From sequence record PP596835.1: DNA of 60,633 nt. The stretch is one strand, 5' to 3'. The notes below the pieces were generated by a model. It did no database searches. It worked only from the letters and a program-made list of their open reading frames with translations, and was not told the origin of the DNA. The DNA is from Escherichia phage Dru_SM1. How positions within the stretch are numbered: the stretch's first letter is position 1; each line of letters opens with the position of its first letter. The translations under genes were made by a program, and so were the position numbers. Positions 29,042 to 43,407 of this stretch are shown piece after piece.

Positions 29042-29268
29042 TAGCGATCCTCGATTGCTCTAATTGTGGTTAAATCTAATTCGCAGGTTGGAGGGTATCC
29101 ATAAAGTCCCATTTGTTTTCCTTGTGCATTAAACCATGTACCTGACGGATCCTGCCACTGCTTAGGTGTCTTGTGGAGAAATACTACTCTGTTTTCACCG
29201 TAATAATTAATTCTTACTCCTGTGTGAGTATATTTACGTTTACCTTTTGGTCTTCTTAAGTTGGCCAT
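29041..29268 (-). CDS. hypothetical protein
   Basis: 75-aa basic ORF overlapping neighbours. Confidence 0.4.
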   Translation of the reverse strand: MANLRRPKGKRKYTHTGVRINYYGENRVVFLHKTPKQWQDPSGTWFNAQGKQMGLYGYPPTCELDLTTIRAIEDR

Positions 29269-30188
29269 CAGAACAACTCCATTACACGATCACGGAATGT
29301 GCCGTCATGGGTGGCGTTAATGTTTGCAGCAATTACACCATACGCCCATAAGTTGAAGGCAGCACGTGATTCATAGATTGTTGATAAACGTTCGTAAGTG
29401 AAACCGTTTTGCTCAAGGTATTTAAGGACAGCATCCTGTTCAATTTCAGTTAATGTTGAAACATGCTTACCAAAATGATGGCGGTCCGGTGACTTATCTG
29501 ATACGCGCATTGGTCCCCACGGAGGAGTAACCACACTTCCAAACGCTGCCGCTTGAATCCAGGAGGATGAGTCACAGCTATACCACGGATAACGCTCCAT
29601 AATGGTTGTTGACGTAATACCAAACGCATGAAGTTTAATCTTAGCACGCCCGCTACCGTCGCAAATATATTTGTCCCACATGCGGTCAAGCCAAGTTTTA
29701 AGCGTGTCCGTTGAACGCCCTACCATGCCCCCGATGGTGATGTATTCGTAGTTCTTCATGTAGTATTCAAGATAGCGGAAGTCCTCCCCGAAGTGGAAGC
29801 AGGGTAACGGTTTAGCACCGCGTGCTTCCATTTCAAGCTGGTTACGGTAGGTTTGCAACGGATCACCGATACCATCGAGCACCGACGCCATTACTGCACC
29901 ATCTTCTACGCGAAGGATGTCTTTGTTGCGCTTAATGTATTCGCAGTATTCAACAATATCAATGTGAGCACCCAAAGAGTGCGCGGAGAATGCGCCGGAG
30001 TCGAGAAACACTTTAGCCCCGTCCGCACGCATCTGATCAACATACTTTTGACGTCCAACGTAGTGGTATGATTCCAAAATATGGGGCAGATTGCGCGTGA
30101 TATTTTTCTCATGCTCGGATAGCTTTTCGTAACGCTGCTGTCCAGGCATATAACCGTTCGTGTAAACTGCTGCCATAAAAACGTTCAT
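29268..30188 (-). CDS. dpdA: DpdA-like DNA transglycosylase (tRNA-guanine transglycosylase homologue)
   Basis: 306-aa ORF; TGT-like region (KVFLDSGAFSAHSLG), ~300-aa size, and position next to folE/queD/queC/queE. Confidence 0.6.
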   Translation of the reverse strand: MNVFMAAVYTNGYMPGQQRYEKLSEHEKNITRNLPHILESYHYVGRQKYVDQMRADGAKVFLDSGAFSAHSLGAHIDIVEYCEYIKRNKDILRVEDGAVMASVLDGIGDPLQTYRNQLEMEARGAKPLPCFHFGEDFRYLEYYMKNYEYITIGGMVGRSTDTLKTWLDRMWDKYICDGSGRAKIKLHAFGITSTTIMERYPWYSCDSSSWIQAAAFGSVVTPPWGPMRVSDKSPDRHHFGKHVSTLTEIEQDAVLKYLEQNGFTYERLSTIYESRAAFNLWAYGVIAANINATHDGTFRDRVMELF

Positions 30189-30391
30189 TTTTGGAATGGT
30201 CCTCCAAACTGATCAATTAATTCTAAAGTACGCCACGCTTCATTAAATGCTTCGTCCGCTCGATGTTTAGCGTCAATAATCTGCTGCTTTAAAACATCTG
30301 TAGGCGCATCATTCTGTATTGCAGAGCAAGCATCCGCAGTACCTGCTTTAAGCTGGTAGAATGCTGTCTCTAAGATTAGTTGTCTTGACAT
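30185..30391 (-). CDS. hypothetical protein
   Basis: 68 aa from ATG 30391 with GGAGGAAAT RBS. Confidence 0.4.
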   Translation of the reverse strand: MSRQLILETAFYQLKAGTADACSAIQNDAPTDVLKQQIIDAKHRADEAFNEAWRTLELIDQFGGPFQK

Positions 30392-30462
30392 ATTTCCTCC
30401 AATGACTAAAAAGCCCATACCAGTATTATGACCGATATGGGCTTGATCTGTAAAGCTATCTA

Positions 30463-31110
30463 TTATTTACAAGCTTCGAGGAACTCCCGGCGCCAATATG
30501 CACCCATATCGGTTCCCCCCAGCCCCGCGCGTGCGGTGCATCCGCGGAATGCTTTGGTAATAGTAGAGCTGCCGCATACCTGCTTAACACCGCGCGACTC
30601 CATGCACATATGCTTGGCGTCAATATAAACACATACAGCTTTCGGGTTTAAATGCTCCTGAATAGCGTCAGCAATCTGGTTAGTTAGACGCTCTTGCACT
30701 TGCAAGCGACGGCTAAAAGCATCAACCACGCGAGACAGTTTACTGAGCCCCACGATGCGACCGTTAGGAACATACCCCACGACAGCGCGACCGATAATAG
30801 GGGCCATATGGTGTTCACAATGACTGTAAACAGGAATATCACGAACAATGACCATTTCATTGGTGTTTTCCGCCCCATCCTCAAAGGTTTTAAACAGACC
30901 AGCAATATCTACATCGTAACCGCTAAACCATGTAGCATAAGCTTTAGCGACACGGTCTGGAGTCTCTGCTAATCCTGGACGTAATTCAATGCAATCTTCA
31001 ATCTGAGTTAGTAAAGTATGCACCGCGCGAGCAATACGGAATTGAGTACCTTCATTATCAATAGTAAATTTTGGCATGGTTTGCAGTTTCCTTGTTGTTA
31101 ATGTGGTCAT
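30463..31110 (-). CDS. folE: GTP cyclohydrolase I
   Basis: 215-aa ORF; catalytic region CEHHMAPI and [23 protein letters not shown] closely resemble bacterial FolE; start overlaps queD stop. Confidence 0.85.
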
Positions 31111-31111
31111 A

Positions 31112-31633
31112 TTACAGGCTATAGTTTACGTGACATTTCGAAGTTTCTTCGATGGTGCATTCTACAAGTTGAACACCATGTTCGTCAAGCAGTTGTGGCC
31201 CAATTACTTCAACCATGTACGCAGCTAAGTTTTCAGCGGTCGGGTTGAATGGAAGTGACACCAGCGAACCTAAATAATCCATTTGATCCCGATGCGACAT
31301 ATTGTCCATAGTTGTCGTATCTACAAATTTATTTAAGCTCTTAATGAGAGGATCATGCTCCCAGTGCAGGAACTTATGGTCCCAGTTATCTTCCAGCCAC
31401 TGACACAGCGTAGTTTTGACCACACTAAAATCGATCACGCGTCCCACGTCGTCCAGCCCACCTTTTTCGCGAAGTGTGCCACAGCGAATAACTTTAACGT
31501 CCGTACGACCTTTCGGTGCAACCTTAAAGTAAAACTTATAGTTGTGACCGTGAATGTGGCGACATTTGCTTTCATGACCCACAACACGATGTCCGGCGCA
31601 AATCTCATGTGAACGAATTACTGTATAGCTCAT
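31112..31633 (-). CDS. queD: 6-carboxytetrahydropterin synthase
   Basis: 173-aa ORF with QueD/PTPS zinc motifs (CAGHRVVGH ... CRHIHGHNY). Confidence 0.8.
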
Positions 31634-31887
31634 TTTAATACCTCTTTAGATTGTTCAATTTCTAACGCACGCTGTGCAGACGCAATAATGTCTTTCAAAT
31701 CTTCTACAAGATTCTTATGACCGCGTTCGCCAGGCTGCAACGCCTTTTTAATCAAATGTTGTAAAGCTGGGTTAGTTGTCTTCCAAGCTTCCAAGACATC
31801 ATACACGTCCACGATGCATTTTACAACATTCCCGTTTTGATCTTTACCATAAATAACTTTCTGGTATTTATTCAAATTATCTTTCAT
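31630..31887 (-). CDS. hypothetical protein
   Basis: ORF 31630-31932; likely start ATG 31887 abutting the upstream gene. Confidence 0.35.
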   Translation of the reverse strand: MKDNLNKYQKVIYGKDQNGNVVKCIVDVYDVLEAWKTTNPALQHLIKKALQPGERGHKNLVEDLKDIIASAQRALEIEQSKEVLK

Positions 31888-31889
31888 TT

Positions 31890-32369
31890 TTACGCTCTCG
31901 CTGTACGTGAATGAACTTCGTAAACAACCCAAAGGATAGCGGACGCTGTGAATTTACTTAAGCTCATTGCTACCATAGATCCCGGATTAACAATACCTAT
32001 AATACTTAAGAACACAATGGAGTCAATTGGTACAGCTACCAAAGAGCTGATAAATACTCGTTGATGGAAAGGCTTCTTGGTGACCGTGTATACTACATAA
32101 TCCGCAAACTCACTAAGCGCAAAAGACGCAACGGATGCAACTACAACCGCAGGATCTCCGAACACCCAGCTAAGAATGCAACCAACAATCATTGCAGGGA
32201 TAACACCTTTGCCAGCGTTACGCTGTGCGTAATCACGAAGAACAAAGATAATACCTACAAAGAAAGCCATCATAGGGACTACGCCAAGTGGCGTATTAAG
32301 CATCGGAAGGTAGGAAAAGCCCAGGTTTACGAATGTAATTGCAGCCAGATAAGCAACGATAAATTTCAT
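31890..32369 (-). CDS. multi-pass membrane protein (possible queuosine-precursor transporter)
   Basis: 159-aa ORF with ~5 hydrophobic segments inside the que cluster; transporter role inferred from context only. Confidence 0.35.
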   Translation of the reverse strand: MKFIVAYLAAITFVNLGFSYLPMLNTPLGVVPMMAFFVGIIFVLRDYAQRNAGKGVIPAMIVGCILSWVFGDPAVVVASVASFALSEFADYVVYTVTKKPFHQRVFISSLVAVPIDSIVFLSIIGIVNPGSMVAMSLSKFTASAILWVVYEVHSRTARA

Positions 32370-32489
32370 ACTTTTGTTCTCCAGTTTTAACAGCGCTATT
32401 CGCTGGTTGTTGGGTTTAAAAGCTTTAGTAGTATAGTTGGGTTACCGCACCCTAAACAATGCGCTAGCGGTGCGGTTTTCGCGGTAAGA

Positions 32490-33197
32490 TCAAGCTTTGC
32501 TAATAAATTCGCTGTACCCTTTAGCACGCAGTTTGCACGCTGGACATTCCCCGCAACCGTATCCCCAGTCATGCAGAGTACGACGGACGCCATTATAGCA
32601 CGTATGGGACTGCTCAATTACTGTGGTTAAGAAACCAACCTTATCCGCCAGCTCAAACGTTTCTGCTTTATTTAAACGCATAAGCGGAGTAACAAAATGG
32701 ATATCTGTTTCATATCCAACGTTTAAGGTAGCTTCAAGCAAATCTACAAACTGCTGACGGCAATCCGGATAACCGCTATAGTCCGTTTCACAGACGCCCG
32801 TAACCACATATCGGGCTCCAACCTTCTGCGCGTAGGCGTGCGCGGTAGTCAGGAAAAGGGCGTTACGGTTTGGCACAAAGCTTGCTGGAAGGTTGTTGTG
32901 CTGTTCGTGATGTTCGTTAACATCACCTTCGTTTCCGATTAAAGCACTATTGCCGATCTGTTTCAATGCAGGTAATTCAAAGACAACAAACGGAACATTG
33001 TGCTCTTTACAAATTTGATTAGCACAAGCCAGCTCAATGTTATGACGTTGACCGTATGCAAAACCAATAGCGTAGACTTTATCGTAGTTATTCAGTGCAA
33101 GACCTAGACAAGTCACGCTGTCCTGGCCGCCAGACAGGACGACAACGGCGGAGTTATGATTTTTTACAGGGAATACCAGTTTATCTAATTTATTCAT
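32490..33197 (-). CDS. queC: 7-cyano-7-deazaguanine (preQ0) synthase
   Basis: 235-aa ORF; PP-loop VVLSGGQDS; C-terminal zinc Cys cluster (CYNG...GCGECPAC); stand-alone QueC size, no extra domain. Confidence 0.85.
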   Translation of the reverse strand: MNKLDKLVFPVKNHNSAVVVLSGGQDSVTCLGLALNNYDKVYAIGFAYGQRHNIELACANQICKEHNVPFVVFELPALKQIGNSALIGNEGDVNEHHEQHNNLPASFVPNRNALFLTTAHAYAQKVGARYVVTGVCETDYSGYPDCRQQFVDLLEATLNVGYETDIHFVTPLMRLNKAETFELADKVGFLTTVIEQSHTCYNGVRRTLHDWGYGCGECPACKLRAKGYSEFISKA

Positions 33198-33198
33198 T

Positions 33199-33387
33199 TT
33201 AGAAACCTTTAAGGCTAATATTAAGGTTAACGACTACTTGTTCAACTACAGCTTCAGATGTTACCTGACGCTGGTGTATCTCAAGCTCCGAATGTATTTT
33301 CTTGGATGCAGCGCGACAAATAGCGTCATTCAACTCGTCTTGTAAACGTTGAATTTTCTGCATAAGGATTACAGTTTCTTCATTCAT
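33199..33387 (-). CDS. hypothetical protein
   Basis: 62-aa ORF between queC and queE. Confidence 0.35.
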   Translation of the reverse strand: MNEETVILMQKIQRLQDELNDAICRAASKKIHSELEIHQRQVTSEAVVEQVVVNLNISLKGF

Positions 33388-33592
33388 TTACTTCACCTTT
33401 AATATCGCAAGGGTTAATTGTTACGTTAGACATTACAATTGGATGATTGCGCGCTCCAATTGTACTAACGTGATTAATATCCAATTCTACATGCACGCCC
33501 TGCATAGTAGCGTGAGCAATTGAAGAATTAAGTTTTTCTACCAGCTCAGTGATCATTTCCTGATGCTGTTTCGCTTCTTCCAAAGTGACCAT
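33380..33592 (-). CDS. hypothetical protein
   Basis: 70-aa ORF overlapping neighbours. Confidence 0.35.
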   Translation of the reverse strand: MVTLEEAKQHQEMITELVEKLNSSIAHATMQGVHVELDINHVSTIGARNHPIVMSNVTINPCDIKGEVNE

Positions 33593-34299
33593 TATTCCAC
33601 CCCGATATATTTGTGAACCTGAAGCTGCAACGTGTAACCGTGTTTCATACAGCTTTGGACAACGGCTTGGATATTACTGTGGTTAAGGTCTTCATCCTGC
33701 TCGTCCATTGGCTGTAAATATATCTTACCCTTGAAACCCTTCGGAGGTCTAGCGATAAATGGCGTAGCTTGATGATCTAATGCTTGAAGAGGTAAACCGT
33801 CTTCCACGTTTACACAGCACGCTTTAAGTACATATTTAAATGCATTAGCGCGGTACAGCACAGAAGGATGAATCTTTGAAGTCTTGGGACTACATACAAT
33901 CACAGGTAACTGGGAAAAGTTCTTAGGTAAAGGCATAGACCCATTAGTTTCAATTTGCACCAAATAGCCCCGCGATAACAGTTGTTCAATGAAGGGGTTA
34001 ATTTGCTGACGGAACGGTTCACCCCCAGTGATAACCACAAGTGAGGTGCTATTGCCCGATTCCAGCTTACGGCTTTCGATTAAACGCATAATATCAACGA
34101 TATGATAAAGGCTACGACCAACAGTATAATCTGTATCACAGCCAGGACATTGCAGGTTACACCCAGCAAGACGCACAAATACAGCAGGTTGACCGCAGAA
34201 TGGACCTTCACCCTGAATGGTAGAGAATACCGAATGCACGTCTAAATACATATCGTTTTCTTTAGAACGGGACTCGGGAGCTTGTTGATTAATATTCAT
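33592..34299 (-). CDS. queE: 7-carboxy-7-deazaguanine synthase (radical SAM)
   Basis: 235-aa ORF; QueE-type motifs (TIQGEGPFCGQPAVFVRLAGCNLQCPGCDT); AGAGGA RBS. Confidence 0.8.
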   Translation of the reverse strand: MNINQQAPESRSKENDMYLDVHSVFSTIQGEGPFCGQPAVFVRLAGCNLQCPGCDTDYTVGRSLYHIVDIMRLIESRKLESGNSTSLVVITGGEPFRQQINPFIEQLLSRGYLVQIETNGSMPLPKNFSQLPVIVCSPKTSKIHPSVLYRANAFKYVLKACCVNVEDGLPLQALDHQATPFIARPPKGFKGKIYLQPMDEQDEDLNHSNIQAVVQSCMKHGYTLQLQVHKYIGVE

Positions 34300-35848: not shown

Positions 35849-37825
35849 TTAGAACGGAACGTAATCCGGATCATCTACTTGTACAGGATTAACCACATTA
35901 TTCACCGTTATACCTTGCGTATTCTGTGAAACAATATCATCCCAGCTCACATCATCGTTATAGCTTGGACCTTCGGTTGTTCCATCCTGCCCGTATACTT
36001 TAACTTGAATAGCTTCGTCGTCCTGTGGAGCTTCAAACTTACCGAAACACGTACCATCATAATCATAGTTCAATATCTCAGGCCATTTCTTATTGGTATG
36101 AACTTTGATGTATTTCGGTGTTTTAAGCATTGCAGCAACATCAAGAGCTTCTTCAATAGTTTGTGGTAAAGGAAGATGCGTCCTTTTCTTCCACCATGCA
36201 ACCGCTTTACGACCTGCCCAGTCGCCATGCAGCAAAGCTACCCATTCGCTAAATATTTTACTACCGCAATAATAAGTCACCTTCATTGTTGGAGGTTTAG
36301 AGCTGTCATTGCGTTTAGTGTGCTTCGCATAAGTAACATGCGTAACTTTAAAGTCTTCAACTACCGGAATGTCCTGCTTGATCAGGGCTTCCGTACTTGC
36401 AGCTTTCTTGAGTTTGGTCTGGAACTTAAACTCATGACCGCAAAAGCCTTCTTTAACGTAATCCGTCCCGCGTAGCCTAAATCCTTTCAGATATAATTGT
36501 TGAACTTGTTCCTGTGTGACGCTGTCCATTGGGATTGGTGCGAAGCCACCGCAATAGCGAGCAGATGCATGATTATACGACCCGCATACATCACATTCTT
36601 TAACCGGAGCAGTACCAGCACCTTTTTCGCCAGGGCGCTTGGGCTTAACAGGGTCGTTAATAGGGCCTAAACGCCGCGTATTACCGCTGAAATCCAGTAC
36701 AAGGCAGTTCTGCTTAGGGCTTGCCGCAATAGCTTGTAAGCGCCCCTCCTGCGTGGAAAGATCAAAGCCCTCCGCGTACACCGGACGCGTACCGCGACCC
36801 AGCATCTGGACCCATAGCACCGCCGACGCAGTGGGGCGAAGCATGATAATCAGATCAAGCATTGGATGGTCGAAACCTGTGGTTAAGACGTTGTTGTTCG
36901 TTAACGCACGAAATTCACCGCGCTTGAACTTTTCAATAATCTCGTCACGCTCTTTTGCATCAAGCTTTGAGTGAATACATCCGCAACTAATACCCATATC
37001 GTTCAGCATATCGCACGCGTCTTTAGCGTGTTCAATACCAGAACAAAATATAAGCCAGCTTTGACGGTCTTCACCACATTCAATCGCTTCCTCAAGTGCG
37101 CGGAGTGTTGCGTCATCGCGATTTACCGCACTTTGCAACTCACTCTGGATAAACTCACCGCCGCGTTTACCTACCCCGTTGAGGTCCAACTCCATCTTTG
37201 TACGCTTCGGCACAACCGGAAGCAAATAACCTTGCTCCAGGAACCAGTTAAAGGCTTCAGGGGTAGTTGCATCAAACGTTACTTTATCAAATAAAGCATC
37301 ATCGTCTTCGTTTTCCTTAACAATTGAGCCGTAACCCAGTCGATAAGGTGTAGCGGTAAGGCCGATAATTTTTAAATACGGGTTAACTTCACGCAATGCT
37401 GCAAAGAACTTCTTATACATTGTTGCATCACGCGGACTAATAAGGTGCGCTTCATCCACAAAGATTAGATCAACCTTGCCGAACTTTTTAGGATGCTTAG
37501 CAACAGATGCAATCCCCGCAAAGGTAATAAGATTGTAGACTTCTTTACGCTTCAAACCTGCGCTGTAAATACCTGCTGGCGCTTCGGGCCAGACTTTCAT
37601 TAATTTATCATAGTTTTGTGCAATTAACTCTTTGACGTGAGTTAACATCATTACGCGCTGGTTTGGATACCATTTGTAAAGCAGATCGAGGAACCCCGCG
37701 ATAACGAGCGATTTTCCTGTCCCTGTTGGTAACAGGATCAAAGGGTTCCCCGCGTTACCCTTTTCAGCGTCAAAATAGCGAAAAACGCTATAGACTGCTT
37801 CCTGTTGATAATCGCGGAGATTCAT
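35849..37825 (-). CDS. SF2 DEAH-box helicase
   Basis: 658-aa ORF; Walker A (LLPTGTGKS), DEAH (FVDEAHLIS), helicase C region (LTTGFD, QMLGRGTRP); Cys cluster CDVCGSYNHASARYCGG. Confidence 0.75.
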   Translation of the reverse strand: MNLRDYQQEAVYSVFRYFDAEKGNAGNPLILLPTGTGKSLVIAGFLDLLYKWYPNQRVMMLTHVKELIAQNYDKLMKVWPEAPAGIYSAGLKRKEVYNLITFAGIASVAKHPKKFGKVDLIFVDEAHLISPRDATMYKKFFAALREVNPYLKIIGLTATPYRLGYGSIVKENEDDDALFDKVTFDATTPEAFNWFLEQGYLLPVVPKRTKMELDLNGVGKRGGEFIQSELQSAVNRDDATLRALEEAIECGEDRQSWLIFCSGIEHAKDACDMLNDMGISCGCIHSKLDAKERDEIIEKFKRGEFRALTNNNVLTTGFDHPMLDLIIMLRPTASAVLWVQMLGRGTRPVYAEGFDLSTQEGRLQAIAASPKQNCLVLDFSGNTRRLGPINDPVKPKRPGEKGAGTAPVKECDVCGSYNHASARYCGGFAPIPMDSVTQEQVQQLYLKGFRLRGTDYVKEGFCGHEFKFQTKLKKAASTEALIKQDIPVVEDFKVTHVTYAKHTKRNDSSKPPTMKVTYYCGSKIFSEWVALLHGDWAGRKAVAWWKKRTHLPLPQTIEEALDVAAMLKTPKYIKVHTNKKWPEILNYDYDGTCFGKFEAPQDDEAIQVKVYGQDGTTEGPSYNDDVSWDDIVSQNTQGITVNNVVNPVQVDDPDYVPF

Positions 37826-37827
37826 AA

Positions 37828-38736
37828 TTAATCTTTCCCGTAATAATTAGCTACTTGATAGTTTTGGCAACCAACTTTCTGACCTTGAGTATCTACTGTA
37901 CTGGAATGGAAATTGCAATACCATGTTCCATCTTCTTTAGGCTCAAGGAATTGGCATGTGCGACAGTTTACTTCCGGCATAGTTTTACGCCAGCATAGTG
38001 AGGAGTGATCGCACCATTTACATTCGAAGAAAGTGGAATCTTTAAATGCGCGGTCCGGAATATCTGTAGCAATAGCAATCTGCACACCACGATCAATATA
38101 CATGTCCGCGGTAACAGGATCAAACGGAATAATTTCTGCGTAAACTTCATCGTCATTCTTGTTTACAGCAAGATATAACGCTGCGCCAAGACCTAGTTTT
38201 CGCATGTACACGTTCATCTGTACATAGTGCTCAGGTTTGGCTTCTTTAACACCTTTAGCTTTCAGCTTTTTAAAAGACTTATCGTTATGCGTCTTCATTT
38301 CGGTGAGCACAGGCATCCCAGGCTGCACGTCCGGACAACCTATAACCACACCATCGCAGGAACCGCCAAAGTGTCCGCCAGCTTCGCTGATACGGAACTG
38401 GTGTCCATTTTCGTCCTGCTGATAGACCTGCATACCTGCTGCAAGAAGCATAGCAATGAAACGCGCTTCTTCCAGATGTCCGCGGTTAAACAGTCGAAGC
38501 TGGCGCCCGTCAAACTCTTTGCGTGTAGCCCAGCGATATCCATAGAAAAGCTTGCGTGCGCATTGCTGCCCAATAAGGGAAGCGCCTAAGTGACTGCGGT
38601 TACCGCTTTCAGGGCGATAAGCGTCTTCAATTGTGGGAATGACTACGCCAAGATACTTACGGTAAGTCCCACCCTGATCTTTTTGCACACCGTCATTGAT
38701 CGCTTGAAGTGTTTTTTCTGCAATATAAATAGCCAT
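37828..38736 (-). CDS. PD-(D/E)XK nuclease, Cas4/RecB-like with Cys cluster
   Basis: 302-aa ORF; one N-terminal Cys and a C-terminal cluster (ECKWCDHSSLC) flank a D...E.K core (DGVVIG...LTEMK). Confidence 0.5.
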   Translation of the reverse strand: MAIYIAEKTLQAINDGVQKDQGGTYRKYLGVVIPTIEDAYRPESGNRSHLGASLIGQQCARKLFYGYRWATRKEFDGRQLRLFNRGHLEEARFIAMLLAAGMQVYQQDENGHQFRISEAGGHFGGSCDGVVIGCPDVQPGMPVLTEMKTHNDKSFKKLKAKGVKEAKPEHYVQMNVYMRKLGLGAALYLAVNKNDDEVYAEIIPFDPVTADMYIDRGVQIAIATDIPDRAFKDSTFFECKWCDHSSLCWRKTMPEVNCRTCQFLEPKEDGTWYCNFHSSTVDTQGQKVGCQNYQVANYYGKD

Positions 38737-38801
38737 TGGAATACCTTAGAAAAATAAGCCGTCGAAAGACGGCTTATGGACACTACAGAGGGAGGGTTAT
38801 C

Positions 38802-39689
38802 TTACTGCTGCCACGGCGGGACTGCTGCTTGTGCCGGATGCGGTTCAGCTTGCTGCTGCGGCTGAGCTTGCTGCTGAGGTGCTGCTGCCTGGCCAGGCTG
38901 TGCTACCTGCTGCGCCCACGGCTGCTGAGCTGCTTCCGGTGCTACTGGCTGTTGTACTGGAGCTTGCTGCACTGGCTGCTGTGGTGCTGCGTTTTGAGCA
39001 GGATTATCCCACGGCTGCGGTGCGGCATTCTGCCACGGTTGTGCTGCTGCGCCCTGCTGTGGTGCTGGTTGCTGCTGCACAGGCTGCTGAACTGGCTGCT
39101 GTTGCTGCACCGGAGCTTGCTGCTGTACAGGCGCTTGCTGTTGCTGAGCAAACGGGTTAGCTGCTGGTTGCTGCGGTGCTGCGCCCGGGAAAGCTGGCTG
39201 CTGAGCTGGCGCACCTGCACCGAACGGGTTAGCTACTGCTGCTTGAGTACCCATTGCTGGAGCACCTGCTTCTTTTTCTGCATACTTAACCGGATCGTTG
39301 ATGTTAGCATAACCGTTAGGCTCGTTGCTGTCTTCATAACCTTCCTGAGAACGAACTTTCAGACGCAGGTTCAGCGGAATGTTATGCAGTTGAGCAGGAG
39401 TATCCCAGCGAATTACGCCAACCGCATGGGAAAGCGCGCCCAGTTGCTCGTAAGCGATACGCACGGTATCTTCGTTATCGTTGATAACGTTATAACGAGC
39501 GAAGATTTTACGGCCTTTAGCAAAACCATCAATGATGCTAAACGTTACCTGGATTGCCATACCGCCATTTTTGGTCGGTTTGAATTCAGATGCTTCAATT
39601 ACTGCTTTATACCAACCTTTCGGCAATGCGCCGTAAGAAGGTGCTTGATAGCTGCTCGCGTCAAAGTGGAAATTAGTTGGCATAGTCAT
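38802..39689 (-). CDS. putative ssDNA-binding protein with Gln/Pro/Ala-rich C-terminal tail
   Basis: 295-aa ORF; N-terminal ~130-aa globular region then low-complexity Q/P/A repeats; sits next to Sak4-like ATPase. Confidence 0.4.
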   Translation of the reverse strand: MTMPTNFHFDASSYQAPSYGALPKGWYKAVIEASEFKPTKNGGMAIQVTFSIIDGFAKGRKIFARYNVINDNEDTVRIAYEQLGALSHAVGVIRWDTPAQLHNIPLNLRLKVRSQEGYEDSNEPNGYANINDPVKYAEKEAGAPAMGTQAAVANPFGAGAPAQQPAFPGAAPQQPAANPFAQQQQAPVQQQAPVQQQQPVQQPVQQQPAPQQGAAAQPWQNAAPQPWDNPAQNAAPQQPVQQAPVQQPVAPEAAQQPWAQQVAQPGQAAAPQQQAQPQQQAEPHPAQAAVPPWQQ

Positions 39690-40417
39690 TAGTTGATACC
39701 TTTCATTTTGTTGATAACAGAACCTAAGTGTGGGACTTCAACCGCATCTAAACGTCCCGAACGATCCTTAGCGATTGTATTAAAGTCCGGTTGAGTTTGC
39801 AAGTAACGATACGAGTTACCTTGCTGATCCTTATTTACATTCAGACGAAACACTTCGTCGAAGAAATAAGGGAGCATTTGCCCCAATTTGGACCCAGGCA
39901 TAGATGGAGCATACGCGGTAACACCGGAGACTTCATCTTTGTCTTTGCCCATTTTAGCAGACATATAAACATGTTTGCCAGGAATATCGCGAAATTTACG
40001 GATTAGATCTTGCATCTTTTCAAGCAAAGTACCATAAGCTTGACGAGGATCTTTTGTTCCTTTTTTCGCATTGTTTAAACATTGTTCAGCAATTTCGCTC
40101 AAGCTGTCAAGCGCAATAGAATCGAAATACTGCTGGTTAGCTGGAGTTACACACCACTGATAAGCAGCTTCAACGTCCTCCAGACATTTAACTTCGATAA
40201 CAGGAATGTCATAAACGATCGGCAATCCCATGTTACCATAAACGCGATTAAGGTTTTCCGCTGCAATAGACAACAGACCGGACTCTGCGCTGATCAAAAT
40301 TGGTTTAGGTAGTGTGGCTACAAGGCTGGTTTTACCCATACCCGCTTCACCGTAAACCAGAATTTTAACGCCTGTGTCTTGCACTACTTGTGAAGACATT
40401 TTAATTTCAATGGCCAT
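39689..40417 (-). CDS. RecA-like ATPase (Sak4-like recombination protein)
   Basis: 242-aa ORF; Walker A LVYGEAGMGKTS; size and neighbourhood typical of Sak4-type proteins. Confidence 0.55.
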   Translation of the reverse strand: MAIEIKMSSQVVQDTGVKILVYGEAGMGKTSLVATLPKPILISAESGLLSIAAENLNRVYGNMGLPIVYDIPVIEVKCLEDVEAAYQWCVTPANQQYFDSIALDSLSEIAEQCLNNAKKGTKDPRQAYGTLLEKMQDLIRKFRDIPGKHVYMSAKMGKDKDEVSGVTAYAPSMPGSKLGQMLPYFFDEVFRLNVNKDQQGNSYRYLQTQPDFNTIAKDRSGRLDAVEVPHLGSVINKMKGIN

Positions 40418-40482
40418 TTAACGCCTCTCTTTTAAGTTCGTGCTCATTGTAACGTAATATACTTTGAACCCTCAATTACTTT

Positions 40483-41397
40483 TTAATCTAATGCCTGATC
40501 ACTTTCATCGCGGAAATGCATAAAGTTAGCAAAACGCGGTTTATCTTTAACACCATGAGGGAAGTGTTTATATGAAATAGTCCGACCTTTAATCTTGTCA
40601 GGGTTATTCCAATAATAAATCTTATCCTCTTGCGTTAATTTACCAGGACTAACGTTGATTGTATTGCCCGTCTTAACGTCTTTACAAACAAGCGTCCCGA
40701 TCATACCGTTAGGAACTTTATTTTCCTGATGTGAAGATCGTGTAGTCCTTCCCAGCTCGTTAACAGTGGCTTCATTAAGATTAGTTTCACCCTCGATAAT
40801 ATCGAGGACAATAGCGTCTTCCTGAATAAAGCGTTTAATACGAAGATATCCACCTTCGCGAACTGTACCTCGCCCATGCTTATAAGGCTTTTCAGGATCG
40901 CGGATAATAATACCTTCATAACCCATATCAAGCCAGATGTTTTCCCAGTAGAGCAGCTCTTGCAAAGACTTAACCACATACATCGGCACAACTTGCAGAT
41001 CGAGCAATTCCCCTTTAGCGTGCTGTGTGGTTATAAAGTCTTTCATCATGTTGTAGCGTGCTTCATAGCCCAGCTCTGCAACACTTTCCGCGCACAGATC
41101 AAAGATGTGCCATTTCAGGAATGGTTCACCTTCAATTGTGTTTACCGCACTGGTTGTTTTACGGCACAGATCCGGGTCCGTTTCAACTCCTGCCGCAAGT
41201 TCACCGTCATAGCCCATGTACTGAGGACCGCTGAAAATTGCGCTTGTATGGCGGTTTTTAAACAGCTTTAAGCTTCGCCCTACTATCCGCCCGTCCGGAT
41301 TTAAACCGCGCACACCGTCGATTTTAGGCAGTATACAGCACGGAAACTTAATCTTTTCTTCAACCGCGTCAGTCGCTAAATGTGGCTTGAATGCCAT
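40483..41397 (-). CDS. ATP-dependent DNA ligase
   Basis: 304-aa ORF; adenylation motif PKIDGVRG (KxDG) and overall size of small phage ligases. Confidence 0.65.
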   Translation of the reverse strand: MAFKPHLATDAVEEKIKFPCCILPKIDGVRGLNPDGRIVGRSLKLFKNRHTSAIFSGPQYMGYDGELAAGVETDPDLCRKTTSAVNTIEGEPFLKWHIFDLCAESVAELGYEARYNMMKDFITTQHAKGELLDLQVVPMYVVKSLQELLYWENIWLDMGYEGIIIRDPEKPYKHGRGTVREGGYLRIKRFIQEDAIVLDIIEGETNLNEATVNELGRTTRSSHQENKVPNGMIGTLVCKDVKTGNTINVSPGKLTQEDKIYYWNNPDKIKGRTISYKHFPHGVKDKPRFANFMHFRDESDQALD

Positions 41398-41406
41398 ATG
41401 CCCTCC

Positions 41407-42060
41407 TTACATTTCATAGTCAAAGTCTGACCAGTCTGAGCGAGTTGTAATTGAATTTACGCCCATACCTTTACCCATAGAACGCCGCCAAACGGTTGCA
41501 GCTTTTTGAGCTTTCTCTTTCATACGAGTATTGCGACGTAAATGTCCGCTGCCCTTTTTAGGTCTATTTTCCTTTTTCTTTGCTTCGGAAATAAGCTCTT
41601 TACATTCCTGCAAACGGATTTTGCTTCTTTCCAATCGCATAGCAGAACGCGCACGTTCATCGCAGAATCTTTGTGCTTTACTACGTTGGTCTTGCGTGCT
41701 CGTATGACCTTTAACGTGGCGGAACTCAATAGTTAGATTATATTTACGCAATTGATCGTTCAACCATTTGAAAGCTACACCTTCCTGTTCACTTTTCCAG
41801 CTTGCTTCTTTATACACTTTAATAGCTGTTGAACAATCTGTTTGCACAATTAAATGATCGCCCGGATGGATTAATTTAGCCTTCATTCCCTCCCAAATAA
41901 CATTACAGATTGCCATTGTTTCAGCTGCATTATTATCAGGAGCTCCGCGTAACGGTCCACCGTTAGCGTTATTTCCACGGTTACACACTACCCATCCACC
42001 GTATCCCGCGGCTTTTGTATTTGGACAAAAACTTGCATCGGATATAATTGTTACTCGCAT
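41407..42060 (-). CDS. ribonuclease H
   Basis: start set to ATG 42060 (AGGAG RBS); RNase H-like segments (TIISDASF ... AAETMAICNVI ... IVQTDCSTAI ... FRHVKGH); basic C-terminal extension. Confidence 0.6.
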   Translation of the reverse strand: MRVTIISDASFCPNTKAAGYGGWVVCNRGNNANGGPLRGAPDNNAAETMAICNVIWEGMKAKLIHPGDHLIVQTDCSTAIKVYKEASWKSEQEGVAFKWLNDQLRKYNLTIEFRHVKGHTSTQDQRSKAQRFCDERARSAMRLERSKIRLQECKELISEAKKKENRPKKGSGHLRRNTRMKEKAQKAATVWRRSMGKGMGVNSITTRSDWSDFDYEM

Positions 42061-42103
42061 AATAACTCCTGTTAAAAAGGGGTCTACTGACCCCTTTAGT
42101 TTA

Positions 42104-42895
42104 TTACAGTTTGTCTTTGAACTCTTCGATATATTGCTCGATCGGATACTGTTTGCGTTTGAAACGATCAAACAAGATTTTAGCTGCGGTTACGTCTTCT
42201 TTATTCTCCTTATTTGCGCCAGGAGCCATAAAATCACGCCACGTGAAACCGTTCAAAGTATGCATGTTTGCAATGTGTTTATTGTAACGACTTTCCCAGT
42301 CCACACGCGGACCTTCCATCTTGCGCAAACCGCGTCCAAGAACTTGGACATATACATCTTTCTGACGTTGTACAGCTTCACCATTATAAGGTCCGGTTTT
42401 AAACTCAACAACACTACCGTTAAGATCTGCACCATCTGCAAAATTTTGCAACAGAGTGTCAATAACGTCATTGAACGTCTGGACCATCACTTTTCCCTGA
42501 GCAATACCTGCCAAATAACCGACGTTTTCTTCACCGTACAACTCAATCAGTTCTTTCTTGGTCGCTTCTGCTTCTTTGATTGCGGACAAAGCCAACATCT
42601 GTTGTTCGAACATGTACTCCTGTTCCAGGAAGTGCGTATATCGCTCTTCATCCACTTTGCAGACAATCCATTTGTATTCAACATCCTTGCTGAAGTCCGG
42701 ATACTGATCTACTTCTACTACTTCCGTAGTAAAGAACTTGCCGTTATATTGAATAACAACTGTATCGCCCGGCTGCAATTCGTCACTTTCCAGAGCACGA
42801 TAGGTATAAAGACGACCACCTGCTTCAAACTTAACTTTGACAGTTACAACGCCTTTTAACAGAGCATGATAAGCTTTCTGAAATTCTTTACGCAT
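42104..42895 (-). CDS. hypothetical protein
   Basis: 263-aa ORF in the replication block. Confidence 0.45.
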   Translation of the reverse strand: MRKEFQKAYHALLKGVVTVKVKFEAGGRLYTYRALESDELQPGDTVVIQYNGKFFTTEVVEVDQYPDFSKDVEYKWIVCKVDEERYTHFLEQEYMFEQQMLALSAIKEAEATKKELIELYGEENVGYLAGIAQGKVMVQTFNDVIDTLLQNFADGADLNGSVVEFKTGPYNGEAVQRQKDVYVQVLGRGLRKMEGPRVDWESRYNKHIANMHTLNGFTWRDFMAPGANKENKEDVTAAKILFDRFKRKQYPIEQYIEEFKDKL

Positions 42896-42936: not shown

Positions 42937-43407
42937 TTAGGCTTTATTTGGCACAATTTCCAGAGACGCGGAACCAACTTTCGATTCAACGCACTGGTTA
43001 AAGACTGCGGCTTGCTCTGCTGTAAGTTTGCGCCAAGCCGCAACTTTCAATACAGGTTTATTTTCTACAAGCTGATCAACGTTAACACCAACTTTAATCA
43101 AATCGCCCAGGATTCCGTTAAGGCTTGGAAGATCAATCTTACGATCAATCTTGTGGGTCATTTTCATAACCCCGCCAGTAATTTCAACTTTATTAGTCCC
43201 CTCAGACGGCGCTGGGAAATAGGACTTAATAATCTTATCACGGAGTGCTCGCTCACGAGCTTGCAGCTTCTGCAATTCCGCTTTAGTTTTATACCACTCA
43301 ATTACATCTGCTTCTGTTGCTTGTACTGCTTTATCTGCGTCGAACATTTTTCTGTCCTCTGTTGTGTTTCGATGTATGTATAGTAGCACATCCATGTGCT
43401 TAGGCAA
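42937..43407 (-). CDS. hypothetical protein
   Basis: 156-aa ORF. Confidence 0.45.
   Translation of the reverse strand: MPKHMDVLLYIHRNTTEDRKMFDADKAVQATEADVIEWYKTKAELQKLQARERALRDKIIKSYFPAPSEGTNKVEITGGVMKMTHKIDRKIDLPSLNGILGDLIKVGVNVDQLVENKPVLKVAAWRKLTAEQAAVFNQCVESKVGSASLEIVPNKA

Follow-up and report, generated by a model that had tools for sequence, protein, structure and literature searches.

A probable single-strand DNA-binding protein of the DUF669 family, with a Pro-Pro-Trp-tipped Gln/Pro/Ala tail, is translationally coupled to a Sak4-like ATPase in Escherichia phage Dru_SM1

About 80% of sak4 genes adjoin a gene encoding a single-strand DNA-binding protein (SSB) (PMC5928155). For phage HK620, Hutinet et al. 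(2018) demonstrated that the DUF669 protein is a genuine SSB which stimulates both the ATP-dependent annealing and the oligonucleotide recombineering carried out by its cognate Sak4, and that the last six residues of this SSB, NDYPPF, are needed both for stimulation and for the loading of Sak4 onto SSB-coated single-stranded DNA (ssDNA) (PMC5928155). A link between DUF669 and the SSB of phage N4 (98% HHsearch probability) was established by Kazlauskas et al., who proposed that the members of the family are replicative SSBs, with highly diverged oligonucleotide/oligosaccharide-binding (OB) folds and 'acidic C-terminal tails'; the viruses encoding them are generally without other SSBs (PMC4889955). 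In N4 itself, activation of the σ70-RNA polymerase via the β' subunit requires the C-terminal residues of the SSB but does not require ssDNA binding (PMC4496689), and according to a title cited in the same paper this SSB is required for replication and recombination. Another OB protein, PrgE of the Enterococcus plasmid pCF10, coats ssDNA in a beads-on-a-string manner via its N-terminal arm (PMC11137577). Here we looked at two adjacent genes of Escherichia phage Dru_SM1 (PP596835.1, a stretch of 60,633 nucleotides referred to below as the window), which encode proteins of 295 and 242 residues and had been taken, in an original prediction made from the letters of the DNA, for an SSB-like protein and a Sak4-like ATPase. 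We consider it probable that the 295-residue protein is a phage SSB made of a DUF669 OB fold and a flexible tail, that its Pro-Pro-Trp (PPW) tip recruits Sak4 for annealing, and that the Gln/Pro/Ala-rich (Q/P/A) stretch in between is a spacer.

Both open reading frames (ORFs) proved to be real and to lie where they had been placed (Table 1). The 295-residue protein matched the Pfam family DUF669 (PF05037) with an E-value of 2.5e-14 (54 bits, for a cut-off of 21), residues 8-144 being aligned with positions 2-138 of the 138 of the profile. Among the PHROG families with an SSB annotation, it aligned with phrog_13350 from end to end and also matched phrog_6015, 'single strand DNA binding protein'; the comparison with DUF669 and SSB families that had been suggested as a check thus gave a positive answer. 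An AlphaFold2 model of residues 1-150, computed with 31 homologous N-terminal domains, reached a predicted local distance difference test score (pLDDT) of 86 and displayed the order β1-β2-β3-α-β4-β5, as expected of an OB fold, which is defined by a β-barrel of five strands and a helix that separates β3 from β4. The best structural matches were the OB-fold DNA binder PrgE, then RPA, Rim1, LEF-3 and bacterial SSBs; in Foldseek, PrgE scored E 3.7e-6 (probability 1.00) and bacterial SSBs came next at E ~1e-2, and among predicted viral structures the matches were phage proteins labelled DUF669 or SSB. The fear that the N-terminal domain might be unrelated to OB-fold proteins was therefore not borne out. 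In the full-length model, pLDDT exceeded 93 at residues 21-140 and fell to ~45-52 at residues 143-290, with a slight rise, to 65, at the terminal PPWQQ, where one helical turn is modelled. This profile, like the composition of the protein, divides it into ~140 globular and ~150 disordered residues, close to the ~130 and ~160 first proposed.

Looking at the homologue alignment, we noticed an N-terminal F-D/N-A segment in which F9 and A11 are invariant; it may play a role similar to that of the N-terminal arm of PrgE. Conserved aromatic and basic residues are also found further on (W26, Y27, Y118 and K111). Together with the family assignment and the published experiments on HK620 and N4, these residues suggest that the domain would bind ssDNA preferentially and independently of sequence. 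A profile built from the N-domain alignment retrieved no solved homologue from the PDB sequences. The hits of the full-length profile in the same sequences were of low complexity only and were discarded, as for the P/Q linker of E. coli ZipA (9iue, E 4e-4): the likeness between SSB residues ~150-260 and this P/Q-rich linker is a compositional one between two disordered linkers and does not reflect homology. The Pfam SSB domain did not match the 295-residue protein, which is thus not a canonical SSB of the E. coli type. Neither did tblastn with E. coli SSB match anything in the window, and the first 50 of the 58 kb of SHIN8, a close relative annotated with pharokka, carry no canonical SSB annotation. 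Since no other SSB candidate was found, the replisome of the phage (PolB, a clamp-like factor and primase) probably uses the DUF669 protein as well.

The 242-residue protein matched Pfam AAA_24 over residues 16-220 (E 1.2e-27, 97 bits, for a cut-off of 27) and phrog_124, 'Sak4-like ssDNA annealing protein' (E 1.7e-59). In its translation GEAGMGKT represents the Walker A motif and SIALDS a Walker B-like motif. A RecA C-terminal domain is absent, which makes it a core-only protein and, with the AAA_24 and PHROG matches, a member of the Sak4 family. The stop codon of sak4 and the start codon of ssb share one base in the sequence TAATG (…CAACTAATGACTATG…), and an AAAGG lies 9 nucleotides (nt) upstream of the ssb start. 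The ssb gene is therefore immediately downstream of sak4 and co-translated with it, which confirms the proposed translational coupling to a RecA-like ATPase. A second in-frame ATG, at codon 3 of ssb, corresponds to the start of most homologues in the alignment; as it lies 5 nt past the sak4 stop codon, the two genes are tightly coupled with either start. In phage Seurat an identical overlap of 1 nt between sak4 and ssb is annotated. The DUF669 and Sak4-like matches, along with the HK620 precedent (PMC5928155), support the idea, already present in the original prediction, that these genes form a single-strand annealing module, of a kind that is known and experimentally characterised.

To what extent this gene pair is kept elsewhere can be seen from a scan of IMG/VR with the Sak4 protein, which gave 63 loci (46-100% identity). 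A DUF669 ORF was found downstream on the same strand in 53 of them, and in most or all of the remaining 10 the sequence stops at sak4 or shortly behind it. In the other direction, look-ups from four diverse SSB representatives, one of which is acidic-tipped, revealed an AAA_24/Sak4 gene immediately upstream in all four cases. Many of the orthologous SSBs adjacent to Sak4 in IMG/VR are short (146-176 residues) and still end in …TPPW(A/M/K)KK. The order Sak4, DUF669 SSB, Cas4-domain exonuclease is kept in PaMx42, SPLA11, RHph_I36, Idiomarinaceae phage 1N2-2 and JenP2, and Trp-based tips are present in four of these five phages (APWEE, APSWAQQ, KPPWAQ and TPPWKRSTEGDDAAQ). As for the PaMx42 SSB (L070:1483-2226), its Q/P/G tail includes three AW motifs but has a basic end devoid of Trp (…RRADSRAAGSSNRRAAHRLAVPHLGAHAKTN), which may be due to a frameshift in that record or may represent a different kind of tip.

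We then considered the tail. In residues 146-295, Q accounts for 32.7%, A for 24.7% and P for 20%, together 77% Q/P/A, whereas residues 1-145 are of ordinary composition. The 150 residues of the tail include three acidic residues and no basic one (net charge -3), and neither Asp nor Glu occurs among the last 14 (PHPAQAAVPPWQQ), which terminate in AVPPWQQ. The tip had been described as aromatic and acidic (PPWQQ); its aromatic character was verified, but it is not acidic, and nothing like the canonical D-D-D-I-P-F tip is present in the tail. The four Trp residues of the tail all follow a Pro (QPW219, QPW227, QPW258 and PPW293). At the Pro frequency of the tail the probability of such an arrangement by chance is ~0.2^4 = 0.0016, meaning that the Pro-Trp pattern is not fortuitous. 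Three Phe motifs are found as well (NPF, AFP and NPF), and the DNA coding for the tail contains short tandem repeats of 12 and 18 nt.

A word-indexed search with the full protein yielded 531 relatives, and nearly all of the 120 listed have a Q/P/A tail and a PPW near the end. As such a search is biased by the low-complexity tail, it was repeated exhaustively with residues 1-145 only. This second search gave 5179 representatives of 50%-identity clusters at E <= 1e-3, the best 150 of which are mostly 240-340 residues long. The tip counts that follow cover 138 newly retrieved representatives of this kind. At least 220 residues were found in 116 of them; thus, the claim that the tail is far longer than typical SSB tails holds when E. 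coli SSB and HK620 SSB are taken for comparison, but not within the subfamily. PPW was present within the last 20 residues in 104 of the 138 (97 of the 116 long and 7 of the 22 short representatives), and a few proteins carry classical acidic tips instead (DDVPPFE, EDDDSDLPF). In almost all cases the last Trp is 2-8 residues away from the C-terminus.

In an alignment of 47 sequences, whose N-terminal domains are 40-50% identical to that of the window protein, the tails are mostly unalignable and only two conserved islands emerge, one of them QPW (positions 225-227) and the other the terminal (H)PAQxAxPPW. All 47 homologues have P226 and W293, and Q225, P291 and P292 are conserved in at least 90% of them; within the Seuratvirus group the internal and terminal PW motifs are all invariant. 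Trp accounts for 2.8% of the tail residues of the subfamily, and 56% of these Trp residues follow a Pro, whose background frequency is 23%. The number of Trp residues increases with tail length (r = 0.67), from ~1 in tails of less than 40 residues to 3.5-4.4 in tails of 80-160 residues, and long tails hold 3-4 additional (Q/P)PW copies. PPW itself is retained in orthologues with tails of ~10 to 200 residues. Taken together, these comparisons indicate that a long tail is typical of the subfamily, that its length is plastic, and that the PW motifs, above all the tip, are the conserved candidates for a function. As far as we found, neither the neutral or basic PPW tip of a large branch of the family nor its repetition, in phages such as this one, along an uncharged tail of ~150 residues has been described; no account of Q/P/A tails or of a PPW tip in DUF669 proteins was encountered in the literature.

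The multiplication of these motifs could also be read in another way, the tail being mainly a 'sticker-and-spacer' polymer in which Trp and Phe residues are the stickers and Q/P/A the spacer, so that it would promote cooperative SSB-SSB contacts or condensates on ssDNA and not form a specific dock for Sak4. The four (Q/P)PW motifs and the three with Phe, set in a disordered and otherwise uncharged region, the frequent Pro-Trp pairs of the subfamily and the increase of Trp number with tail length would all suit such a polymer, and the linker of E. coli SSB is likewise G/Q/P-rich and takes part in condensation (PMC11947617). However, orthologues with a single PPW and tails of 10-30 residues occur in the same module, which implies that multivalency is dispensable for the core function, and a natural deletion of 33 tail residues is tolerated (see below). 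Self-association is compatible with Sak4 recruitment, and the polymer reading displaces the main function towards the former; we hold this reading to be possible but rather doubtful.

A further possibility is that the long Q/P/A stretch results from neutral expansion of a low-complexity sequence by replication slippage, so that nothing beyond the OB domain and the final few residues would be of functional importance. The tandem repeats of the tail-coding DNA point in this direction, as does the tail length of the subfamily, which varies from ~10 to 200 residues while the tip is kept. Close relatives differ in their tails mostly by in-frame insertions and deletions; in one of them (P0004), 33 residues are missing relative to window residues ~175-207, a part of the tail devoid of Trp, and the remainder of the protein is 100% identical. 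This relative constitutes a ready-made 'spacer-shortening' mutant of the same SSB. In contrast, QPW 225-227 is nearly invariant among homologues whose N-terminal domains are only 40-50% identical, most lineages of the subfamily retain long tails, and in two members of the Seuratvirus group (P0005 and P0007) the aligned tail is 78% identical, compared with 79-85% for the OB domain. Neutral expansion of the whole stretch is therefore unlikely. Finally, a tip acting as in N4 SSB, through a contact with the host RNA polymerase that would couple late transcription to replication and leave Sak4 recruitment secondary or dependent on another surface, is quite improbable, for although N4 SSB is a distant DUF669 relative (PMC4889955) adjoining a Sak4-like gene, needs its C-terminal residues for σ70-RNA polymerase activation (PMC4496689) and ends in a non-acidic, aromatic-x-KK sequence (SLFGKK) similar to the PPWAKK of short-tailed members of the clade, and although the annotation of SHIN8 lists no RNA polymerase in its first 50 kb, so that the window phage probably relies on that of its host, hhalign detected no sequence relation to N4 SSB, and at all loci examined the PPW tip is found together with Sak4, which fits a partner internal to the module.

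Recruitment of Sak4 through the PPW tip of an SSB thus remains our preferred reading, and it can be pictured as follows. The divergent DUF669 OB domain would coat ssDNA arising from the neighbouring Cas4-type exonuclease and helicase or from replication forks, and translational coupling would keep synthesis of the SSB in stoichiometric proportion to that of the Sak4-like ATPase encoded upstream. The flexible tail would expose the PPW tip and thereby bring Sak4 to SSB-coated ssDNA, as the PPF tip does in HK620, and the recruited Sak4 would anneal complementary strands in an ATP-dependent manner. The Q/P/A stretch would be a spacer of variable length whose three internal (Q/P)PW copies render the tail multivalent, these extra copies perhaps adding avidity or promoting self-association; the suggestion that the tail is an interaction hub is accordingly plausible. 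Being neutral, the tip would probably not compete with the acidic tip of the host SSB for the basic pockets in which the latter is bound.

Several observations weigh against this picture. The tip of the window protein is unlike every characterised SSB tip, having no acidic residue and an aromatic residue that is not C-terminal, so the docking mode of HK620, which probably involves the terminal carboxylate and an acidic patch, may not apply. Neither protein of the window pair has significant pairwise similarity to its HK620 counterpart, the current Pfam DUF669 model does not match HK620 SSB, and hhalign comparisons of the N-domain profile with HK620 SSB and with N4 gp45 were not significant (probability of 5% for the latter). 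Function is therefore transferred from HK620 at the level of family and synteny, and we infer the SSB role of this subfamily from family, fold and synteny. The closest solved fold, PrgE, binds double-stranded DNA as well as ssDNA and is no classical SSB (PMC11137577).

On a more speculative note, which we offer tentatively and would not be surprised to see fail, a large DUF669 branch might have exchanged the near-universal acidic tip for an uncharged or basic, Trp-anchored (T/V)PPW, multiplied in many lineages along a Q/P/A spacer. Such a tip would amount to a private multivalent docking code for Sak4, the Cas4-type nuclease, the helicase and the replisome, perhaps within a condensate on ssDNA, and would operate outside the interactome of the host SSB tip.

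The positions of the two genes, of the elements of the SSB and of the neighbouring features are collected in Table 1.

Table 1. Coordinates in the window of the Sak4/SSB genes, of the elements predicted in the SSB and of adjacent features.
Feature	Position	Strand	Basis
Sak4-like core-only RecA-family ATPase, 242 aa	39689..40417	-	AAA_24, phrog_124, Walker motifs
TAATG junction, Sak4 stop/SSB start, 1 shared base	39687..39691	-	sequence
DUF669-family single-strand DNA-binding protein, 295 aa + stop codon	38802..39689	-	Pfam DUF669, PHROG
Predicted N-terminal OB-fold domain, residues 1-140, with conserved N-terminal F-D/N-A arm	39270..39689	-	
Disordered, nearly uncharged Gln/Pro/Ala tail, residues 146-295	38805..39254	-	composition, pLDDT, repeats, indels
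Two internal QPW motifs (Q217-P-W219; Q225-P-W227)	39009..39041	-	homologue conservation
Third internal QPW motif (Q256-P-W258)	38916..38924	-	W258 invariant in Seuratvirus group
C-terminal tip VPPWQQ with Pro-Pro-Trp anchor	38805..38822	-	conservation in 47 homologues
Intrinsic-terminator-like hairpin, 25 nt past SSB stop codon	38754..38777	-	10-bp stem, 5 GC pairs, then TTTTT
Cas4-domain (PD-(D/E)XK) exonuclease, downstream module partner	37828..38736	-	phrog_1990 E 3.9e-118
Superfamily-2 DNA helicase, 658 aa, after nuclease	35849..37825	-	ResIII/Helicase_C

The window is approximately a complete Seuratvirus genome (subfamily Queuovirinae). Positions 38000-41500 share 95-97% DNA identity with Escherichia phages SLUR75, Skure, Seurat, CAjan and ~30 others, and the structural half of the genome matches the same phages. 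Structural genes occupy the plus strand up to ~24 kb and replication and recombination genes the minus strand at ~26-50 kb; the sign of the GC skew flips at ~24 kb and again at ~52 kb. The module of the window runs in the order ligase, Sak4, SSB, Cas4-type exonuclease and helicase, and a helicase lies at the corresponding position in three distant contigs (L075, L077 and L078). The hairpin that follows ssb is the strongest terminator-like site within 35.5-43.5 kb, and in PaMx42 a terminator is annotated at the equivalent place. An antisense ORF of 318 residues (38736-39692, plus strand) covers the whole ssb gene; its product is rich in Leu, Cys, Arg and Trp and has no PHROG match, and it was discarded as a shadow ORF of the tail sequence, which is CAG/GCN/CCN-rich and free of stops.

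Some other features of this region deserve mention. The Cas4-type exonuclease gave no Pfam match at E <= 0.01 despite its strong PHROG match, and it carries a C-terminal cluster of cysteines (…CKWCDHSSLCW…CRTC…WYC…C), which hints at an Fe-S or zinc site. Between the polymerase and helicase genes (~29268-34299, minus strand), synteny with the Seurat annotation points to a 7-deazaguanine/queuosine-precursor cluster with TGT/DpdA-like, FolE, QueD, QueC and QueE genes. Such a cluster implies that the phage DNA is modified, and hence that SSB and Sak4 probably act on modified DNA. A DUF7173 protein is encoded a few genes upstream of the Sak4-SSB pair (42937-43407, minus strand), as is the case in two distant metagenomic contigs (L075:1-49 and L078:553-1197), and its gene may belong to the same conserved replication and recombination block. 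The RNase H ORF as called mechanically (254 residues, TTG start, 41407-42171, minus strand) overlaps the upstream ORF of 263 residues (42104-42895, minus strand) by 68 nt; in the Seurat annotation RNase H is shorter (220 residues), and its true start is thus probably located further downstream.

In most of the more than 30 matched Seurat-like GenBank records the 295-residue gene is labelled 'hypothetical protein', and it can now be annotated as a phage SSB instead. The accepted picture of SSBs, including the description of DUF669 (PMC4889955), is one of acidic tips, and more than 100 clusters found here have a neutral or basic Pro-Pro-Trp, which predicts a different mode of partner recognition. 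For SSB and recombineering specialists, Sak4/SSB pairs are candidate portable recombineering tools, and PPW as a recruiting motif, together with a naturally shortened spacer, may provide design rules.

Among the described systems, the Sak4 (HkaL) and SSB (HkaK/Abc1) of HK620 come closest. The same sak4-then-ssb order is found, with a stop/start overlap of 4 nt; the HK620 ATPase also belongs to AAA_24 and its SSB was placed in DUF669 by its authors (PMC5928155). Both SSBs carry a Pro-Pro-aromatic motif close to the end, acidic in its surroundings and terminal in HK620 (NDYPPF), neither acidic nor C-terminal in the window (VPPWQQ). The HK620 SSB (195 residues) has a shorter, charged and lysine-rich tail with aspartates near a truly C-terminal Phe, whereas the window SSB has 150 uncharged Q/P/A residues and a Trp two residues from the end, in four copies. 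In N4, gp44 (Sak4-like) directly precedes gp45 (SSB) and the two genes overlap, as in the window, and the SLFGKK end of the SSB is likewise non-acidic with an aromatic residue near the terminus. The structured region of N4 SSB is larger than that of the window SSB and its G/A/P/K tail is short, and its C-terminus activates the host RNA polymerase, a function not known for the window clade.

The resemblance to PrgE (PDB 8S4S/8S4T) lies in an OB fold supplemented by helices and by an N-terminal arm that serves for oligomerisation on DNA, for a sequence identity with the window N-terminal domain of 10-12%. PrgE has 144 residues and a short C-terminal tail, and it is encoded in a conjugation operon with no Sak4 partner. 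A Pfam scan of PrgE gave no DUF669 match and the hhalign comparison was not significant; the links to PrgE, HK620 SSB and N4 SSB are drawn from structure, synteny and literature and not from our sequence tests. E. coli SSB belongs to a different OB family; it has no tblastn match in the window, and the Foldseek matches are weak (E ~1e-2). Its tail is ~65 residues long, and its linker includes a QGGWGQPQ element. The DDDIPF tip of E. coli SSB is strongly acidic and ends in Phe-COOH, whereas that of the window protein is the neutral PPWQQ, which for this reason probably cannot use the host pockets that bind the SSB tip. Nevertheless, the two proteins share one architecture, composed of an OB domain, a disordered linker (G/Q/P-rich in E. 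coli) and a short aromatic-containing tip, which recruits partners in E. coli SSB and would do so in the window protein.

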